In this document: positions 6,510 to 56,207 of the stretch, piece by piece
Layout of the letters: the number at the start of each line of letters is the position of its first letter
How positions within the stretch are numbered: the first letter of the stretch is position 1
Origin: Clostridia bacterium
GTDB taxonomy: Bacteria; Bacillota; Clostridia; TANB77; CAG-508
Assembly (NCBI GenBank): GCA_017409455.1
Contig: JAFQSS010000028.1
Location: forward strand, 11,007 to 75,006
Reading direction: 5' to 3'
DNA: 64,000 nt
Notes under the pieces: model-generated
Database searches by the model: none
What the model was told of the DNA's origin: nothing
Seen by the model: the letters and a program-made list of their open reading frames with translations, nothing else
Position numbers and translations under genes: made by a program

Positions 6510-6688
6510 TACTTTTCCTCCTTTAAATTTGGGGATGGTCCTTCTTTTTTAGTCATTTGGGCCATTTTTTCAGCATTGTCTTTTTGCTTTGGAAGTGGTA
6601 TCCAAGCAAAATATGTTGATACAAATTCTCCATATTGTGTTGCGTCTTCTCCTACTTCTGGATGTGTTTGCTTTTGTTCTTTATCCAT
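6509..6688 (-). CDS. small hypothetical protein upstream of clpC
   Basis: ORF whose stop overlaps the clpC start; likely start MDKEQKQ after a GAAAGGTAGG RBS; no family recognised. Confidence 0.35.
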   Translation of the reverse strand: MDKEQKQTHPEVGEDATQYGEFVSTYFAWIPLPKQKDNAEKMAQMTKKEGPSPNLKEEK

Positions 6689-25063: not shown

Positions 25064-25135
25064 AAGGACTGTCCCAAAATTCGCGAAAAAAAGGACCGTC
25101 CCCAATTTCGCGAAAAAGAGGACCGTCCCCAATTT
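25064..25135. repeat. type-2 palindromic repeat, 3 tandem units (AAGGAC-N-GTCCCCAATTTCGCGAA)
   Basis: aaggactgtcccaaaattcgcgaa / aaaaaggaccgtccccaatttcgcgaa / aaagaggaccgtccccaattt; abuts the stop codon of the OFOR beta subunit. Confidence 0.9.
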
Positions 25136-45721: not shown

Positions 45722-45774
45722 AATTTGGGGACGGTCCTTTTTTTCGCGAATTTTGGGACAGTCCTTTTTTTCAC
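45722..45774. repeat. type-2 palindromic repeat, 2 tandem units
   Basis: aatttggggacggtcctttttttcgcgaa / ttttgggacagtcctttttttcac. Confidence 0.9.
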
Positions 45775-49350: not shown

Positions 49351-49714
49351 ATTGCACCTCCTTGATAATTTGGGGACGGTCCTTTTTTTCACGAATTTTG
49401 GGACAGTCCTTCCTTTCAGGAATAATTCTTTGTATCCCACTCATTTCAAATATTTTTCTTACTGGTGTTGTCATGTTTGCGACTTGAACTTTTCCACCTA
49501 GCATATTAGCTAACTTATACCTTCCTATGATTAGCCCTATTCCTGCACTATCCATAAAAGAAACATTGTTAAAATCAAATATAATTTCTTTTGGCATGTA
49601 TCTTTCAATTTCATTATCTAATTTCCTCCTTATCTTTTGTGCTGTACATTCATCTATTTCTTCATCCATTTTGAAGATTAATTGCTTGTCGTCTTTTTTA
49701 TAGAAACTTTCCAT
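49343..49714 (-). CDS. spoIIAA: anti-sigma-F factor antagonist SpoIIAA (STAS domain), C-terminus encoded by a repeat element
   Basis: STAS core with phospho-serine motif ([17 protein letters not shown]). After MSGIQRIIP, the last ~22 aa ([24 protein letters not shown]) are translated from repeat 49367..49416. Confidence 0.8.
49367..49416. repeat. type-2 palindromic repeat, 2 tandem units, inside the spoIIAA 3' end
   Basis: aatttggggacggtcctttttttcacgaa / ttttgggacagtccttcctttc. Confidence 0.9.
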
Positions 49715-49793: not shown

Positions 49794-49819
49794 TGTCGAA
49801 TTCATAGAAGTTTTCGACA
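49794..49819. promoter_or_regulatory. pair of inverted Spo0A boxes upstream of the spoIIA operon
   Basis: TGTCGAA at 49794..49800 (+) and TTCGACA at 49813..49819, each preceded by ATAGAAGTTTT; 80-105 nt upstream of the spoIIAA ATG. Confidence 0.5.
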
Positions 49820-49896
49820 AAGCAAAAAAAGAAAGCACAAACTTGAAATTTCAAATTTATGCTTTCTTTTAGGTTGTGTTTTTTCAGTGAGCAGTG

Positions 49897-50682
49897 CTAC
49901 TTTAAAAGCACCAAAACTCCAGAGCTGTCGAATTGAATATGGTACGGATCATAGTTGTAACTGACACAAGCCACAGGATAATTGCTCCCATTATCATTGA
50001 AATTACCGCCCACCAGCGCATAACCGCCTTCACGGGTTACAATTTTGTAGCTGTTCCCCTGTCCATCACAGAATCCACCACACTTTCTTGCTCCCGTTTT
50101 TTCAATAGAATGAGTAGCTCCAGGTGCATTCCTGTAGTTACCTGCACTCGAAGAATCATTTGCAACATAGTCGAGTGTCCACAGACCATTTACGATGCGC
50201 AAAGCATACCAGATAAACAGTTCATGCAGATTGCTCAAACGAGAGTCCCTTTCGGGCGCATACTCTTTTGCTATCTGCATCCACTGGTTGCAAGAAAATC
50301 TTACGCCTACATCTTGATTAGCCTCATAGTAAACCTTTTCTTTATGAACGGATGGTTCCATATGGGCAATCCAGTAGTCATAATTGACTGCTTTAATTGC
50401 TTCTCTGACTCTTGTCAGAAAACTTTTTTCTCCGTCATTTTTTCCTTTTTGTTTTGCGAGCCAGTTCTTCACTTTTTCTCTATCTTCTACAGTGATTTTA
50501 GTGAAGAATTTAGCCTTGTCTCCAGTTTCCTCTACAGTTTCATTCTGTGAAAAAGTAGCCTTATCCTTCGACTTTTCAGAAGAATTAGGAATCAACCGTA
50601 AGATCTGTTCTCCATTTTCTACTGAGCTTAAAGTATAATGCATTCCTTCTGGTGTTTTTAACACAACTTCAAACTGTTCCAT
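49897..50682 (-). CDS. DGR target protein 1 (C-type-lectin/FGE-like fold inferred; VR1 at C-terminus)
   Basis: AAAGGAGG RBS before MEQFEVVLKTPEGMHY (track ORF begins 15 codons earlier); paralogue of 52550..53293; own TTGCAA-17-TATAAT promoter; C-terminal GGYALVGGNFNDNGSNYPVACVSYNYDPYHIQFDSSGVLVLLK. Confidence 0.85.
   Translation of the reverse strand: MEQFEVVLKTPEGMHYTLSSVENGEQILRLIPNSSEKSKDKATFSQNETVEETGDKAKFFTKITVEDREKVKNWLAKQKGKNDGEKSFLTRVREAIKAVNYDYWIAHMEPSVHKEKVYYEANQDVGVRFSCNQWMQIAKEYAPERDSRLSNLHELFIWYALRIVNGLWTLDYVANDSSSAGNYRNAPGATHSIEKTGARKCGGFCDGQGNSYKIVTREGGYALVGGNFNDNGSNYPVACVSYNYDPYHIQFDSSGVLVLLK
49908..50023 (-). repeat. DGR variable region VR1
   Basis: 116 nt, colinear with TR and without indels; 16 mismatches, 15 of them at TR adenines (coding strand). 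Confidence 0.9.
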
Positions 50683-50966
50683 TGTTTTCCTCCTTTTGTT
50701 ATAATCGTCAGTTTTTCTACATGACACTTTGTCATACTTTGTTATTATAACATATTATGTATGCTTTTGCAAATTCTTCAAGTACTACATCTCTATCGCA
50801 ATATAAAAAAGCATATATATATTCAATTTCTTAAATTTACTAACATATCTGCTTTTATAATTCATATTTACTTAAAATTTCTTTTAAGAAGGAATAGACT
50901 TCCTTTAATATCTAATAAATGTACTGTATATATTCCTTAAAATATATAATCTCGCTTAATATTAGA

Positions 50967-51082
50967 GCACCAAAACTCCAGAGCTGTTGTTTTGAATATT
51001 GTTTGGATTATTGTTGTAATTGACATCTGCCACAGGATAATTGTTTCCATTATTATTGTAATTACCGCCCACCAGCGCATAA
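50967..51082 (-). repeat. DGR template repeat (TR)
   Basis: Non-coding copy 19 nt downstream of the RT stop; in the VR frame it reads YALVGGNYNNNGNNYPVADVNYNNNPNNIQNNSSGVLV (16 AAY Asn codons in that reading; about 41 A in 116 nt by hand count). Confidence 0.9.
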
Positions 51083-51100
51083 TAAAAACCCAATTTAAGT

Positions 51101-52114
51101 CTATCCCTCTATATAAAACATACTTTTTCTTAAATTAAAAGAATCTGCATGTTTAACATAGCCTAGCCAACCTGCTATACTTCGTTGTATTTCAGGTAAT
51201 GTTATTTTTCCTTGTTTTAATAGCTTTGTATATCTCTTTAGTTTTCTTTTCATTCTACATTTACTTGTATGCCTTATTTTCATTCTTTTTTCATTGATTT
51301 TGTATCCACAAAAATTAACCCCTTGTATATCTTTAAAAATTCTTGTTTTTGAATTTAGCTGTAACCTTAATTTTTCTTCTAAAAATATATTTATAGATTG
51401 TAGCCATTCCTTTGCTCTTTCTTTATTCTCACACAATATGACTATATCATCCATATATCTATAATAATATTTGCATTTTAAAGTATGTTTAGAATATTGG
51501 TCTAATTCGTTTAAATATATATTTGCAAACATTTGCGAAGTATAGTTTCCTAATGGCAATCCTTTCATTCCTTCAGTGGATAGCAAAATTTCCCTTATCA
51601 GCCATAATAATTTCTTGTCTCTTATTTTTCTTTTTAAGATTTCCCAAAGAATTCTTTTATCTATATTTTGAAAATATTTAGAAATATCCATCTTTAATAT
51701 ATAGTAGTTATACCATTTGAACTTTGCACTTCTCATTCCTTTTTGCACATCTTTTGAAGCTTTGTGCATCCCTCTTCCTTCTATTCCTGCATATGTGGTA
51801 TTGATAAATTGCGTTACAAAATATGGCTTTATAAAATTTTCTACACACCACTGATGTACAATTCTATCTTTATAACTAGCAGCCCTAATAATCCTTTCTT
51901 TTGGTTCATATACTTTAAATTTTCTATATTTCCCTGGTTTATATGTACATTCTTTTAGATGCTTCTCGAGTTCTAGTAATTCTTGTTCTAATTTTAATTC
52001 AAAAATTATTACATCTCTTTTTTCTCTTTTTCCTCTTCTTGCTTTTTTATGTGCTAATAATAATTTTTCGAATGAAACACATTCTTCATATTTATTTCTT
52101 ATTGTTTTAGGCAT
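51101..52114 (-). CDS. DGR-type reverse transcriptase
   Basis: 337 aa; RT motifs incl. YRYMDDIVIL (YxDD) and LPLGNYTSQMFANIYLNELD (the [I/L]GxxxSQ motif characteristic of DGR RTs); no maturase, endonuclease or intron RNA domains. Confidence 0.9.
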   Translation of the reverse strand: MPKTIRNKYEECVSFEKLLLAHKKARRGKREKRDVIIFELKLEQELLELEKHLKECTYKPGKYRKFKVYEPKERIIRAASYKDRIVHQWCVENFIKPYFVTQFINTTYAGIEGRGMHKASKDVQKGMRSAKFKWYNYYILKMDISKYFQNIDKRILWEILKRKIRDKKLLWLIREILLSTEGMKGLPLGNYTSQMFANIYLNELDQYSKHTLKCKYYYRYMDDIVILCENKERAKEWLQSINIFLEEKLRLQLNSKTRIFKDIQGVNFCGYKINEKRMKIRHTSKCRMKRKLKRYTKLLKQGKITLPEIQRSIAGWLGYVKHADSFNLRKSMFYIEG

Positions 52115-52463
52115 TTTTTGCCTCCAACGCCTTGATTAATCCTCCTAACATTTTTCCTATTTCATTTAACAATTCATTACTATACTTATATTTCTTTTCA
52201 TCAATCCATTTTTGATTATACATTATTCTTATACAAATTCTTTGATAATATATATTACTATCAACAATATTATATATTTGTAATCTTTTATTTTTATCAA
52301 CCTTGCTCGCAAGAAGAATGTGTTTTAGCATTTCATACATACTTGTTTTTATTTCTGTTCCTATACTAAATTTTTCTGTTCTTGGTAATTTCAATAATAT
52401 TGTTAACATGTATTCTATGTATTTTTCAATTTTTACTATTATAACTAATTTATTATCATTCAT
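52107..52463 (-). CDS. avd: Avd-like four-helix-bundle accessory protein
   Basis: 118 aa from MNDNKLVII (GGGGGG RBS); basic helical protein whose stop overlaps the RT start by 8 nt, the usual avd position. Confidence 0.75.
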   Translation of the reverse strand: MNDNKLVIIVKIEKYIEYMLTILLKLPRTEKFSIGTEIKTSMYEMLKHILLASKVDKNKRLQIYNIVDSNIYYQRICIRIMYNQKWIDEKKYKYSNELLNEIGKMLGGLIKALEAKNA

Positions 52464-52549
52464 TTTATTTCCCCCCATAAAAAATAAAAAGAGAGAAACC
52501 TGAATTTTCAAATTTCTCTCTTTTGTTAGATTGTGTTCAGTGGTCAGTG

Positions 52550-53293
52550 CTACTTCAAAAGCACCAAAACTCCAGAGCTGTAGGACTGAATATCGTATGG
52601 ATGACTGTTGTAATTGACATCCGCCACAGGATAATTGTGACCATTATTATTGTAATACCCGCCCACCAGCGCATAACCGCCTTCGCGGGTTACAATTTTG
52701 TAGCTATTACCCTGTCCATCACAGAATCCGCCACACTTTCTTGCCCCAGTTTTTTCTAGAGAATGAGTAGCTCCAGGTGAATTCCTGTAGTTCCCTACGA
52801 TCGAAGAATCATTTGCAACATAATCGAGTGTCCACAGGCGGTTCACAATACGCAAAGCATACCAGATGAAGAGCTCATACTCGTTGCTCAAGCGAGAGCC
52901 TCTTTCAGGCGCATACTCTTTTGCCATCTTAATCCACTCGTTGCAGGAAAATCCTACGCCTACAGCATTACCTTCAGCATAATAAATTTTCCCCTCTGTG
53001 ACAGAAGGTTCCAGATTTGCAATCCAGTAGTCGTAATCAACTGCTTTAAGTGCATTTCTGACTCTTTTCAGAAAACTTTTTTCTCTTTCATTTTCGCTTT
53101 TTTGTTTCACCAGCCAGATTTTCACCTTTTCTCTGTCTTCTGCAGTAATTTGGGTGAAAAATTTAGCTTTGTCCCCGGACTTTTCAGAAGAATCGGGAAC
53201 CAACCGTAGTATCAGTTCTCCATTTTCTCCTATAGCTGCCTCATAGTGCATATCCTGAGGTGCTTCTAACACAACCTTTCTTAACCGTTCCAT
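52550..53293 (-). CDS. DGR target protein 2 (paralogue of target 1; VR2 at C-terminus)
   Basis: 247 aa; MERLRKVVLEAPQDMHY...; same 5' UTR/RBS as target 1; TTGAAA-17-TATAAT promoter overlapping the dtd 3' end. Confidence 0.85.
   Translation of the reverse strand: MERLRKVVLEAPQDMHYEAAIGENGELILRLVPDSSEKSGDKAKFFTQITAEDREKVKIWLVKQKSENEREKSFLKRVRNALKAVDYDYWIANLEPSVTEGKIYYAEGNAVGVGFSCNEWIKMAKEYAPERGSRLSNEYELFIWYALRIVNRLWTLDYVANDSSIVGNYRNSPGATHSLEKTGARKCGGFCDGQGNSYKIVTREGGYALVGGYYNNNGHNYPVADVNYNSHPYDIQSYSSGVLVLLK
52561..52676 (-). repeat. DGR variable region VR2
   Basis: 116 nt, colinear with TR; 13 mismatches, 12 at TR adenines. Confidence 0.9.
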
Positions 53294-53372
53294 TGTTTTC
53301 CTCCTTTTGTCATTATCAACAGTTTTCTACATAGCATTTGCTAGTATGCTAATTATTATATCACGTATTTCC

Positions 53373-53810
53373 TTATTTTTCAACTATAATCGTTACAGGT
53401 CCATCATTTAATAGCTCAACCTTCATATCAGCGCCAAAGATTCCTTTTTGAACCTCAATTCCATTTTTAGCACATTCGTCACAAAAATATTCATATAAAG
53501 GAATTGCTTCATCTGGTCTAGCAGCTTCAATAAAGCTTGGTCTATTTCCATCAGCACAATTACCATATAAAGTAAATTGTGACACTATAAGTAATTTTCC
53601 ATTTACATCTTTTAAACCTAGATTCATTTTATCATTTTCATCTGTAAAAACTCTTAAATTACAAACTTTTTTTACTAGATAATCAGCTTGTTCTTTAGTA
53701 TCTCCAACTTTTATTCCAACTAGTACTAAAAATCCTTTTTCTATTTCTCCAACTATTTTATTATCCACTTCTACACTTGCATTTTTTACTCTTTGTATAA
53801 CTACTTTCAT
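53373..53810 (-). CDS. dtd: D-aminoacyl-tRNA deacylase
   Basis: 145 aa; MKVVIQRV..ASV.V, SQFTLYG, GADM.V.L.NDGPVTI. Confidence 0.9.
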   Translation of the reverse strand: MKVVIQRVKNASVEVDNKIVGEIEKGFLVLVGIKVGDTKEQADYLVKKVCNLRVFTDENDKMNLGLKDVNGKLLIVSQFTLYGNCADGNRPSFIEAARPDEAIPLYEYFCDECAKNGIEVQKGIFGADMKVELLNDGPVTIIVEK

Positions 53811-56155: not shown

Positions 56156-56207
56156 AATTTGGGGACGGTCCTTTTTTTCGCGAATTTGGGGACGGTCCTT
56201 TTTTTTA
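56156..56207. repeat. type-2 palindromic repeat, 2 tandem units
   Basis: aatttggggacggtcctttttttcgcgaa / tttggggacggtccttttttttac; fills the der-plsY spacer and overlaps the der stop. Confidence 0.9.

Follow-up and report, generated by a model that had tools for sequence, protein, structure and literature searches.

The minus strand of a 64,000-nt stretch of contig JAFQSS010000028.1 from a Clostridia bacterium (the window, whose numbering is used throughout) carries between positions 49827 and 53383 a compact 3.5-kb system that has the parts of a diversity-generating retroelement (DGR). To our knowledge, no other natural system in prokaryotes directs hypermutation to particular proteins, with gut bacteria as the richest source of DGRs. 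Read along the minus strand, the system consists of a target gene that contains a variable repeat (target2 with VR2), the avd gene, a reverse transcriptase (RT) gene, a template repeat (TR), a structured RNA of the RT-14 family and a second target gene with its own variable repeat (target1 with VR1). A first-pass annotation, which was made from the sequence by eye, had interpreted the locus as a DGR. The present analysis supports this interpretation and completes it with the RT-14 RNA, an RNA duplex that brackets the TR, hairpins beyond both VRs and the evolutionary context of the element, none of which it had included.

The RT gene (51101..52114) encodes a 337-residue protein with a YMDD motif (D222/D223) and an LGNYTSQ motif (residues 188-194), and its coordinates and motifs had been correctly annotated. 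The best relative of the protein in the PDB is the Bordetella phage RT, bRT (8ub7; E = 2.1e-48, 168 bits, residues 2-329 aligned). In the same search, group II intron RTs score at most 81 bits and retron RTs at most 60 bits. The comparison with retron, group II and Abi RTs that had been suggested as a check thus brings the protein, by its search scores, far closer to the Bordetella phage DGR RT. Residues K29, F66, R74, I76, D143, G189, Q194 and D222/D223 correspond to the functional bRT residues K29, F66, R74, I76, D138, G182, Q187 and D215/D216, which were highlighted in the paper on the bRT structure and include catalytic and fidelity residues, and bRT I181 of the IGxxxSQ motif is replaced by L188. 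The upstream avd gene (52107..52463) encodes 118 residues and overlaps the start of the RT gene by 8 nt, as had been described. The earlier designation of its product as Avd-like is substantiated by family models, since the protein passes the cut-offs of both Pfam bAvd (E = 1e-19, 71.4 bits against a cut-off of 40) and NCBIfam DivGenRetAVD (82.8 bits against a cut-off of 80). The gene call on an identical contig agrees with these boundaries.

The two target genes flank the avd-RT-TR core on both sides and in the same orientation. Target2 (52550..53293) encodes a leaderless protein of 247 residues that comprises an N-terminal β-hairpin/helical part, a C-type-lectin-like domain and the C-terminal VR. 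Target1 (49897..50682) encodes a paralogue of 261 residues (70% amino acid identity). The most likely start codon of target1 is the ATG at 50682, which has a good ribosome-binding site, rather than the GTG at 50727.

Adenine-specific divergence and transfer from the template to the variable repeats

TR (50966..51082), VR1 (49907..50023) and VR2 (52560..52676) are 117-nt copies that align without a gap. The TR is non-coding and lies past the RT gene, as had been reported, and its length and its distance from the RT stop codon are corrected here from 116 to 117 nt and from 19 to 18 nt. Both VRs are located near the 3' ends of their open reading frames (ORFs), and both end 8 nt short of the stop codon. 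Mismatch counts and hypergeometric P values were computed on the 116-nt core, in which the TR contains 41 adenines. VR1 differs from the TR at 16 positions, of which 15 are TR adenines and one is a G>T change (P = 2.8e-7). VR2 differs at 13 positions, namely 12 TR adenines and one T>G change (P = 1.1e-5). The count of 27 adenine positions among 29 mismatches, first obtained by eye, is thereby reproduced. Eight positions are changed in both VRs, and because six of them carry different bases in VR1 and VR2, the two repeats diversified independently. Adenine is replaced by G, T or C, and the replacements include silent third-position cases (GGA>GGG/GGT, GCA>GCT/GCG and CCA>CCG), which point to a mutational process rather than to selection.

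The coding design of the TR is consistent with this pattern. Translated in the VR frame, it reads YALVGGNYNNNGNNYPVADVNYNNNPNNIQNNSSGVLV, with 14 AAY codons among 38, and a stop codon is unreachable by any substitution of adenine, in agreement with the AAY-rich and stop-free design recognized before. The protein variants reachable from this template number approximately 2e21. At the other extreme, the final 22 nt (CAGCTCTGGAGTTTTGGTGCT), previously estimated as about 20, are the same in all three copies, and divergence begins right after them. VR1 and VR2 have a common 3' flank, in which a hairpin of 17-20 bp with a 4-nt loop occupies a conserved position approximately 35 nt past each repeat. 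The hairpin past VR2 (52487..52524) has 17 bp and that past VR1 (49827..49870), found by an inverted-repeat search, has 20 bp. Both have a T-run and also look like terminators. By analogy with the target-recognition role from Guo et al. 2011 (PMC3240598), they may also serve as target-recognition hairpins.

Related loci and family proteins are designated below by L- and P-numbers, respectively, and RT identities are given relative to the window RT. In the closest relative, L003 (RT 95% identical), the TR is 97.4% identical to that of the window, the VR 78.6% and the immediate VR flanks 89-93%, and the TR is the best-conserved segment of the comparison. Of the 25 differences between the VRs of the window and L003, 22 are at TR adenine positions. 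The two TRs differ at three positions (G>T, T>C and A>T), and each of these changes is mirrored in the VR of the same lineage. These lineage-specific TR changes in cognate VRs indicate that information flowed from TR to VR after the window and L003 lineages split, and they cleanly document concerted evolution of TR and VR between two lineages.

A wider comparison extends this result from two lineages to the target family. Over 48 family members, the entropy is 2.97 bits for VR codons with a TR adenine at position 1 or 2, 1.10 bits for the other VR codons and 1.27 bits for the lectin scaffold. A sister target forms a 90%-identity cluster in which several proteins are the same over the first 205 residues and have entirely different VRs. 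The refuting case named in the first-pass annotation, invariant VR positions beside varying flanks, is thus not what is observed: VR positions vary among relatives and their flanks do not.

Some side observations concern the same repeats. In the above sister-target cluster (P0089, P0250, P0251, P0258 and P0259), several VRs are frameshifted (…GGVSFCFVVPVAF…) and read through to another C-terminus, and the VRs of the other members are in frame and completely unlike one another; frameshifted VR alleles seem to circulate in the population of this sister target. The VR of L003 (184-303) contains a 3-nt insertion (TTT) relative to its own TR, for which standard adenine mutagenesis gives no explanation. 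The 5' part of target1 (50200-50682, compared with L003 2184-2663) is 76.6% identical, compared with 94% for avd and RT, and thus exhibits a VR-like divergence without being covered by the TR.

RT-14 RNA and the duplex that brackets the template repeat

The sequence directly 3' of the TR matches the Rfam family RT-14 (RF02921; 50808..50967, 160 nt) over the full length of the covariance model (positions 1-144) with 78.6 bits against a gathering score of 48.1. The match lies 134 nt past the RT stop codon, and its first positions overlap the final two bases of the TR. It is the sole RNA family match beside the RT gene, and no retron or group II intron RNA family reaches the Rfam thresholds in the window. 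RT-14 was found at the same position in 14 of the 14 related loci scanned (74-128 bits), which gives 15 of 15 with the window. An independent fold computed from the alignment of this region has 36 base pairs, 15 of which are supported by compensatory changes. In the window, the RNA begins with an outer stem, P1 (50965-50959 / 50918-50912), in which a 9-bp stem with a UAAG tetraloop (50948-50927) is nested as the first element. A conserved linker (50911-50902) and a 3' hairpin with a UAGUA/GAA loop and a U-tract (50855-50804) follow.

What is the role of RT-14 in this system? RT-1 to RT-19 were described as motifs near RT genes, and only RT-10, the spacer of the Bordetella phage BPP-1 DGR, was tied to a DGR, whereas a DGR function of further RT motifs was a matter of speculation (Weinberg et al. 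2017, PMC5737381). A published role for RT-14 was not found in the literature searched. In BPP-1 and 207 other DGRs, a 9-bp tetraloop stem that binds Avd is located just 3' of the TR, and sequences that flank the TR form a duplex of about 13 bp in BPP-1 and are predicted to do so in other DGRs (Handa et al., bioRxiv 10.1101/2023.10.23.563531). In addition, a recent survey places sarcin-ricin-type loops in both RT-14 and RT-10 (PMC13085918). By analogy, RT-14 is likely to be the equivalent of the BPP-1 spacer (Sp) RNA. This assignment would give an orphan motif a concrete role as the TR-adjacent RNA of avd-RT-TR DGRs in gut Clostridia.

The second part of the BPP-1 arrangement, the duplex around the TR, is also present in the window. 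In the minimum free energy fold of the candidate RNA, GAGGGAUAGACUU (51109..51097), which extends across the RT stop codon, pairs over 13 bp with AAGUCUAUUCCUU (50901..50889), which belongs to the linker that is 'unpaired' in the Rfam RT-14 model. RNAduplex finds this bracketing duplex at 42 of 49 RT-14 sites, with the upstream strand always just 5' of the TR. Six of the remaining seven sites have a mis-anchored linker, a contig end or no upstream segment, and one (L006) pairs otherwise. The two strands co-vary, as in AGACUU:AAGUCU, AAACUU:AAGUUU, AGGUUU:AAACCU and GGGCAAGGUC:GACUUUGUCC. Pairs were counted in a similarity-based alignment of 29 distinct loci from which the TR had been excised. 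There, 92.7% of the cells are paired, compared with 51-70% when the partner strand is slid by 1-3 columns. Two-sided changes occur in 5 of the 13 pairs, and the observed covariation score was reached by none of 500 shuffles, in a test whose structure came from one of the aligned sequences. The argument for the RNA rests on covariation and not on energy, because the 361-nt candidate RNA is no more stable than shuffled sequence (z = -1.16). The RT-14 model should gain a covarying duplex that encloses the TR. This agrees with the recent structural model of how the BPP-1 template is reverse transcribed and carries that model over to a different gene layout.

The 3' boundary of the TR coincides with the start of this RNA structure. 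The last position of TR/VR homology is 50966, next to the first position of the outer RT-14 stem, 50965. Twelve relatives yielded a TR/VR alignment as well as an RT-14 match, and in seven of them the homology ends at the same RT-14 model position. Judged by sequence, such a coincidence is what priming in cis at the 3' boundary of the TR would predict.

Target proteins, genomic setting and relatives

The targets yielded no usable sequence match in Pfam, in NCBIfam or in the PDB, the last searched both with a single sequence and with a family profile, and none in Pfam when all 48 family members were searched. The AlphaFold (AF2) model of the target, built on 48 homologues, has a pLDDT (predicted local distance difference test) score of 92, and its top PDB match in Foldseek is the DGR variable protein TaqVP (5vf4; probability 1.0, E = 1e-4), followed by folds like that of the formylglycine-generating enzyme (FGE). 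A viral structure library returned only a weak resemblance to phage tail-fibre tips. In the model, the VR is the set of C-terminal strands of the lectin-like domain. Inspection of the family alignment by eye revealed neither a signal peptide nor a transmembrane segment. The family comprises 709 cluster representatives at E ≤ 1e-3, and among the 150 best listed, nearly all have 200-290 residues; 'hypothetical protein' is the sole name found for it in the source databases. Most cellular DGR target clusters have a signal peptide or membrane anchor (Roux et al. 2021), so leaderless targets of about 250 residues are somewhat atypical, though they represent no new principle. The targets belong to a sizeable uncharacterised family of leaderless proteins that is open to study with a 3.5-kb system.

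The element is chromosomal, because its flanks consist of housekeeping genes, and its host belongs to a spore-forming Clostridia lineage. One flank contains der, plsY, gpsA, a zinc-ribbon protein gene and dtd, and the other contains spoIIAA, spoIIAB, sigF and spoIID. An identical sequence is also located on a 176-kb metagenome scaffold. The nearest genome records are metagenome-assembled genomes (MAGs) of uncultured Clostridia, many of them gut metagenome bins. A prophage origin was rejected given the housekeeping flanks (der, plsY, gpsA and dtd on one side, the spoIIA operon and spoIID on the other), which are syntenic in relatives. Sporulation-specific expression, which was considered for the spoIIAA-spoIIAB-sigF neighbourhood, is unsupported, and both targets have near-consensus σ70-type promoter matches. 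That upstream of target2 (53355..53383, TTGAAA-17-TGnTATAAT) agrees with 11 of 12 consensus positions and has an extended -10 TG, and that upstream of target1 is located at 50744..50772 (TTGCAA-17-TGnTATAAT); both are candidate promoters identified by consensus match. The remainder of the window contains no further VR-like sequence or target paralogue.

Two compositional features of the region were also observed. The lectin-domain halves of both targets (49800-50400 and 52400-53200) have a G+C content of 41-45%, compared with approximately 26-32% in the neighbouring genes, avd and RT; a foreign origin and a compositional constraint on the scaffold are both conceivable. Furthermore, a dispersed 27-nt unit, AATTTGGGGACGGTCCTTTTTTTCRCG, with an imperfect palindrome, GGACNGTCC, as its core, occurs in one to three tandem copies at gene junctions (6529-6541; 25066-25132 on the minus strand; 45725-45764; 49370-49409; 56159-56198), with 10 matches of two or fewer mismatches against 0.05 expected. 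A pair of copies in the spoIIAA/spoIIAB junction lengthens the STAS ORF to 123 residues, compared with 106 in L055. The unit could represent a small repetitive element or serve as the binding site of a regulator.

Related avd-RT loci were collected from MAGs of uncultured Clostridia and number 52, with RT identities of 47-95%. A self-BLAST screen showed that 35 of these, in addition to two identical copies of the window contig, have a TR just past the RT gene and an upstream VR with adenine-dominated mismatches. Except for L003, the related loci lack the flanking genes of the window, and their targets are at most 40% identical to those described here. Two of them, L010 (409-10660) and L018 (1897-10714), were examined in detail. 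Both carry avd-RT-TR-RT-14 cassettes with RTs that are 77-82% identical, and their neighbours encode a Mob_Pre relaxase, a DDE transposase, RepA_N, SSB and large serine recombinases. These cassettes appear to reside on mobilisable integrative elements rather than on prophages. Their targets, of approximately 300 residues, have the N-terminal β-hairpin motif (K-x-V-L-E-A-P-x-G ... G-E-L-I-x-R) in common with the window targets and differ in their lectin domains.

The dtd/spoIIAA site itself has a different content in sister lineages. In L055 (8001-8744), L057 (8001-8741), L058 (6475-7215) and L065 (7001-7744), it contains a single target with no avd or RT within 7-8 kb. L063 (2440-2760; ENA ERZ27227493 k141_722484) has two tandem targets that are 281 nt apart. 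Between them lies a scar that joins the first ~20 nt of avd to the 3' part of RT-14 and corresponds to the removal of window positions 52446..50875. The L063 lineage has therefore lost the DGR core, which comprises avd, the RT gene, the TR and the 5' part of RT-14, from the same locus. The VRs of L057 and L058 differ from the window TR at 28 positions, 25 of which are TR adenines, and the L057 scaffold is only about 85% identical. This pattern suggests that a near-identical TR acts in trans from elsewhere in these genomes or that the cassette was recently lost. Gain or loss of the cassette is thus shown at one fixed chromosomal site, with a deletion scar, and close relatives of the cassette lie beside relaxase, transposase, replication-initiator and serine recombinase genes. 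As a side observation, the target family expands locally, often near the spoIIA region: more distant members form two convergent copies in L059 (8001-9705) and three tandem paralogues just 3' of the spoIIA-spoIID-M23 block in L061 (7111-9739), in both cases with no RT within 8 kb.

Interpretation and comparison with known systems

All defining features of a DGR that are accessible to a sequence-based test are present at the locus. We therefore conclude with high confidence that it is a structurally complete chromosomal DGR of avd-RT-TR layout with two flanking paralogous targets, and that it was very probably active in the recent past. Current activity is likely.

Several observations weigh against this interpretation or limit it. 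Two of the 29 mismatches are at non-adenine bases, each of which adjoins a substituted adenine. The only other records retrieved with an identical RT (ENA ERZ28653886 scaffold_54 and a Logan contig from SRR12529056) are the same base for base over 3.8 kb and consequently carry no information on polymorphism. Metagenome scans with a target-family profile and with an adenine-masked pattern of the TR 3' end gave no matches. A consensus scan found no promoter-like site between the target2 hairpin and avd, so the expression of the template RNA must be assumed to occur by read-through. The bases of the proposed priming duplex (CUCUAAUAU with UAUUAAAG or UAUUAG) are nearly invariant, and covariation is thus uninformative on it. 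Finally, the loss of the cassette in sister lineages implies that it is dispensable, and it could be on its way out here.

The only serious alternative, which we regard as quite improbable, is a fossil DGR whose parts are still recognisable but whose homing has ended, so that the VRs are frozen and drifting. The single non-adenine mismatch in each VR would fit such drift, as would the failure to find population variation for this exact element and the situation in close relatives that deleted the cassette, where non-adenine differences in the VR are more frequent (5 of 25 and 10 of 32 in L063, 13 of 30 in L055). A fossil would, however, hardly retain intact RT, avd and target ORFs with every catalytic residue in place, a TR that is the best-conserved segment at 97.4% identity, and invariant 3' ends and hairpins at both VRs. 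In addition, the three lineage-specific TR changes copied into the cognate VRs date homing to the time since the separation from L003, with its 95% identical RT.

Two further explanations dispense with a DGR altogether. If the targets were simply duplicated genes that diverged by normal mutation or gene conversion beside a leftover gene fragment, mistaken for a TR, and an unrelated RT, their tandem-type paralogy (70% amino acid identity) and the duplication and deletion dynamics of the locus would be expected. This explanation is effectively refuted, because it fails to concentrate 27 of 29 differences at the adenines of a single copy, to keep a non-coding copy as the most conserved segment and to build a stop-proof copy of AAY codons, and because the TR-after-RT geometry with adenine-dominated mismatches recurs in 35 related loci with different targets. 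An RT that belongs to another system (a retron, a group II intron or an Abi/DRT defence system), with coincidental repeats, is just as hard to credit. Its basis would be sub-threshold NCBIfam matches to the group II maturase TIGR04416 (140 bits, cut-off 300), Drt3a (72 bits, cut-off 200) and retron St85 (67 bits, cut-off 235), but these similarities reflect the common RT fold and no such model reaches its cut-off, whereas the DGR RT is by far the best match (168 against at most 81 bits). A retron was rejected on the St85 score, the lack of a retron RNA match and the presence of Avd as the neighbour, a DGR-specific partner encoded with an 8-nt overlap. A group II intron was rejected on the TIGR04416 score and the lack of an intron RNA match at Rfam thresholds in the window.

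For the DGR interpretation, we propose the following mechanism by homology with the DGR of Bordetella phage BPP-1. A transcript through avd and RT would contain the TR, immediately followed by the RT-14 RNA, and would have to pass the terminator-like hairpin of target2 if it starts upstream of that gene. The 3' end of the RT gene would pair with the RT-14 linker over 13 bp and so bracket the TR, and RT-14 would offer two docking elements to the RT-Avd complex, its 9-bp tetraloop stem and its sarcin-ricin-like hairpin. cDNA synthesis would then be primed in cis at the 3' boundary of the TR, and the RT would copy the TR faithfully save at its 41 adenines. The mutagenised cDNA would replace VR1 or VR2, with guidance from the 22 invariant nt at the 3' end, from the GC-rich 5' end (TTATGCGCTGGTGGGCGG) and possibly from the VR hairpins. 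As a result, the predicted ligand-binding surface of two small leaderless proteins of the C-type-lectin fold would be rewritten, with AAY codons changed into codons for many amino acids but never into a stop codon.

A broader hypothesis can be formulated, which we consider speculative and rather unlikely as a whole. The DGR would serve a large unnamed family (approximately 700 clusters at 50% identity, with no Pfam model) of leaderless C-type-lectin-fold proteins whose N-terminal β-hairpin module is also present on targets of mobile elements. Their role would be that of diversified sensors or binders, which work either intracellularly or on a surface reached without Sec export. RT-14 together with the TR-bracketing duplex would define the RNA scaffold of an entire avd-RT-TR clade, whose members pass from mobile elements to a fixed site in the chromosome and back. 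If this were true, leaderless lectin-fold targets would represent a target class and a biology unlike those of the usual secreted adhesins and phage tail fibres.

The lectin fold, the AAY design, Avd and the flanking RNA elements are standard DGR features, and the system reveals no new principle. Its useful additions are the functional placement and extension of RT-14, the concerted evolution of TR and VR, and cassette gain or loss at a fixed site. Among the closest known systems is the prototype, the BPP-1 DGR (mtd-avd-TR-brt), which resembles the present system in full-length RT homology with conserved key residues, Avd, adenine-specific TR/VR differences, a C-terminal VR on a C-type-lectin fold, an invariant 3' end like an initiation of mutagenic homing (IMH) sequence and a hairpin past the VR. 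The likeness extends to the RNA directly 3' of the TR, with its 9-bp tetraloop stem, sarcin-ricin-type loop and TR-flank duplex of about 13 bp. However, the window has the order avd-RT-TR, so that this RNA lies past the RT gene rather than before it, and the RNA is RT-14, not RT-10. The element is also chromosomal rather than phage-borne, with two targets that are small leaderless proteins instead of a tail-fibre tip. In the Rfam collection, the full-length match is to RT-14 (RF02921) and the BPP-1 spacer RNA is RT-10 (RF03022); unlike in the RT-14 model, the 'unpaired' linker pairs here with a segment 5' of the TR, outside the model.

In a survey of 372 DGRs, the avd-RT-TR order was termed architecture B2, two-target cassettes accounted for 13%, and non-adjacent or remote targets were noted (Wu et al. 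2018, PMC5758913). The window has the same core order and two targets, but here one target lies on each side of the core, both point the same way, and they belong to a family without a Pfam model. Among variable proteins, TaqVP of Thermus aquaticus (PDB 5vf4), the best structural match of the modelled target, likewise has a C-type-lectin fold with a C-terminal VR. It differs in its length of 381 residues and in its other inserts and N-terminal parts, and the two have no detectable sequence homology (14% sequence identity, query-normalised TM-score 0.40). The DGRs of Treponema denticola (TvpA) and Legionella are, like the present one, chromosomal and have more than one target, and here the VRs of target-only relatives also bear the apparent imprint of the same TR (in L057, TR adenines account for 25 of the 28 differences). 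In those systems the targets are lipoproteins or secreted proteins, whereas the targets described here have no export signal visible by eye.

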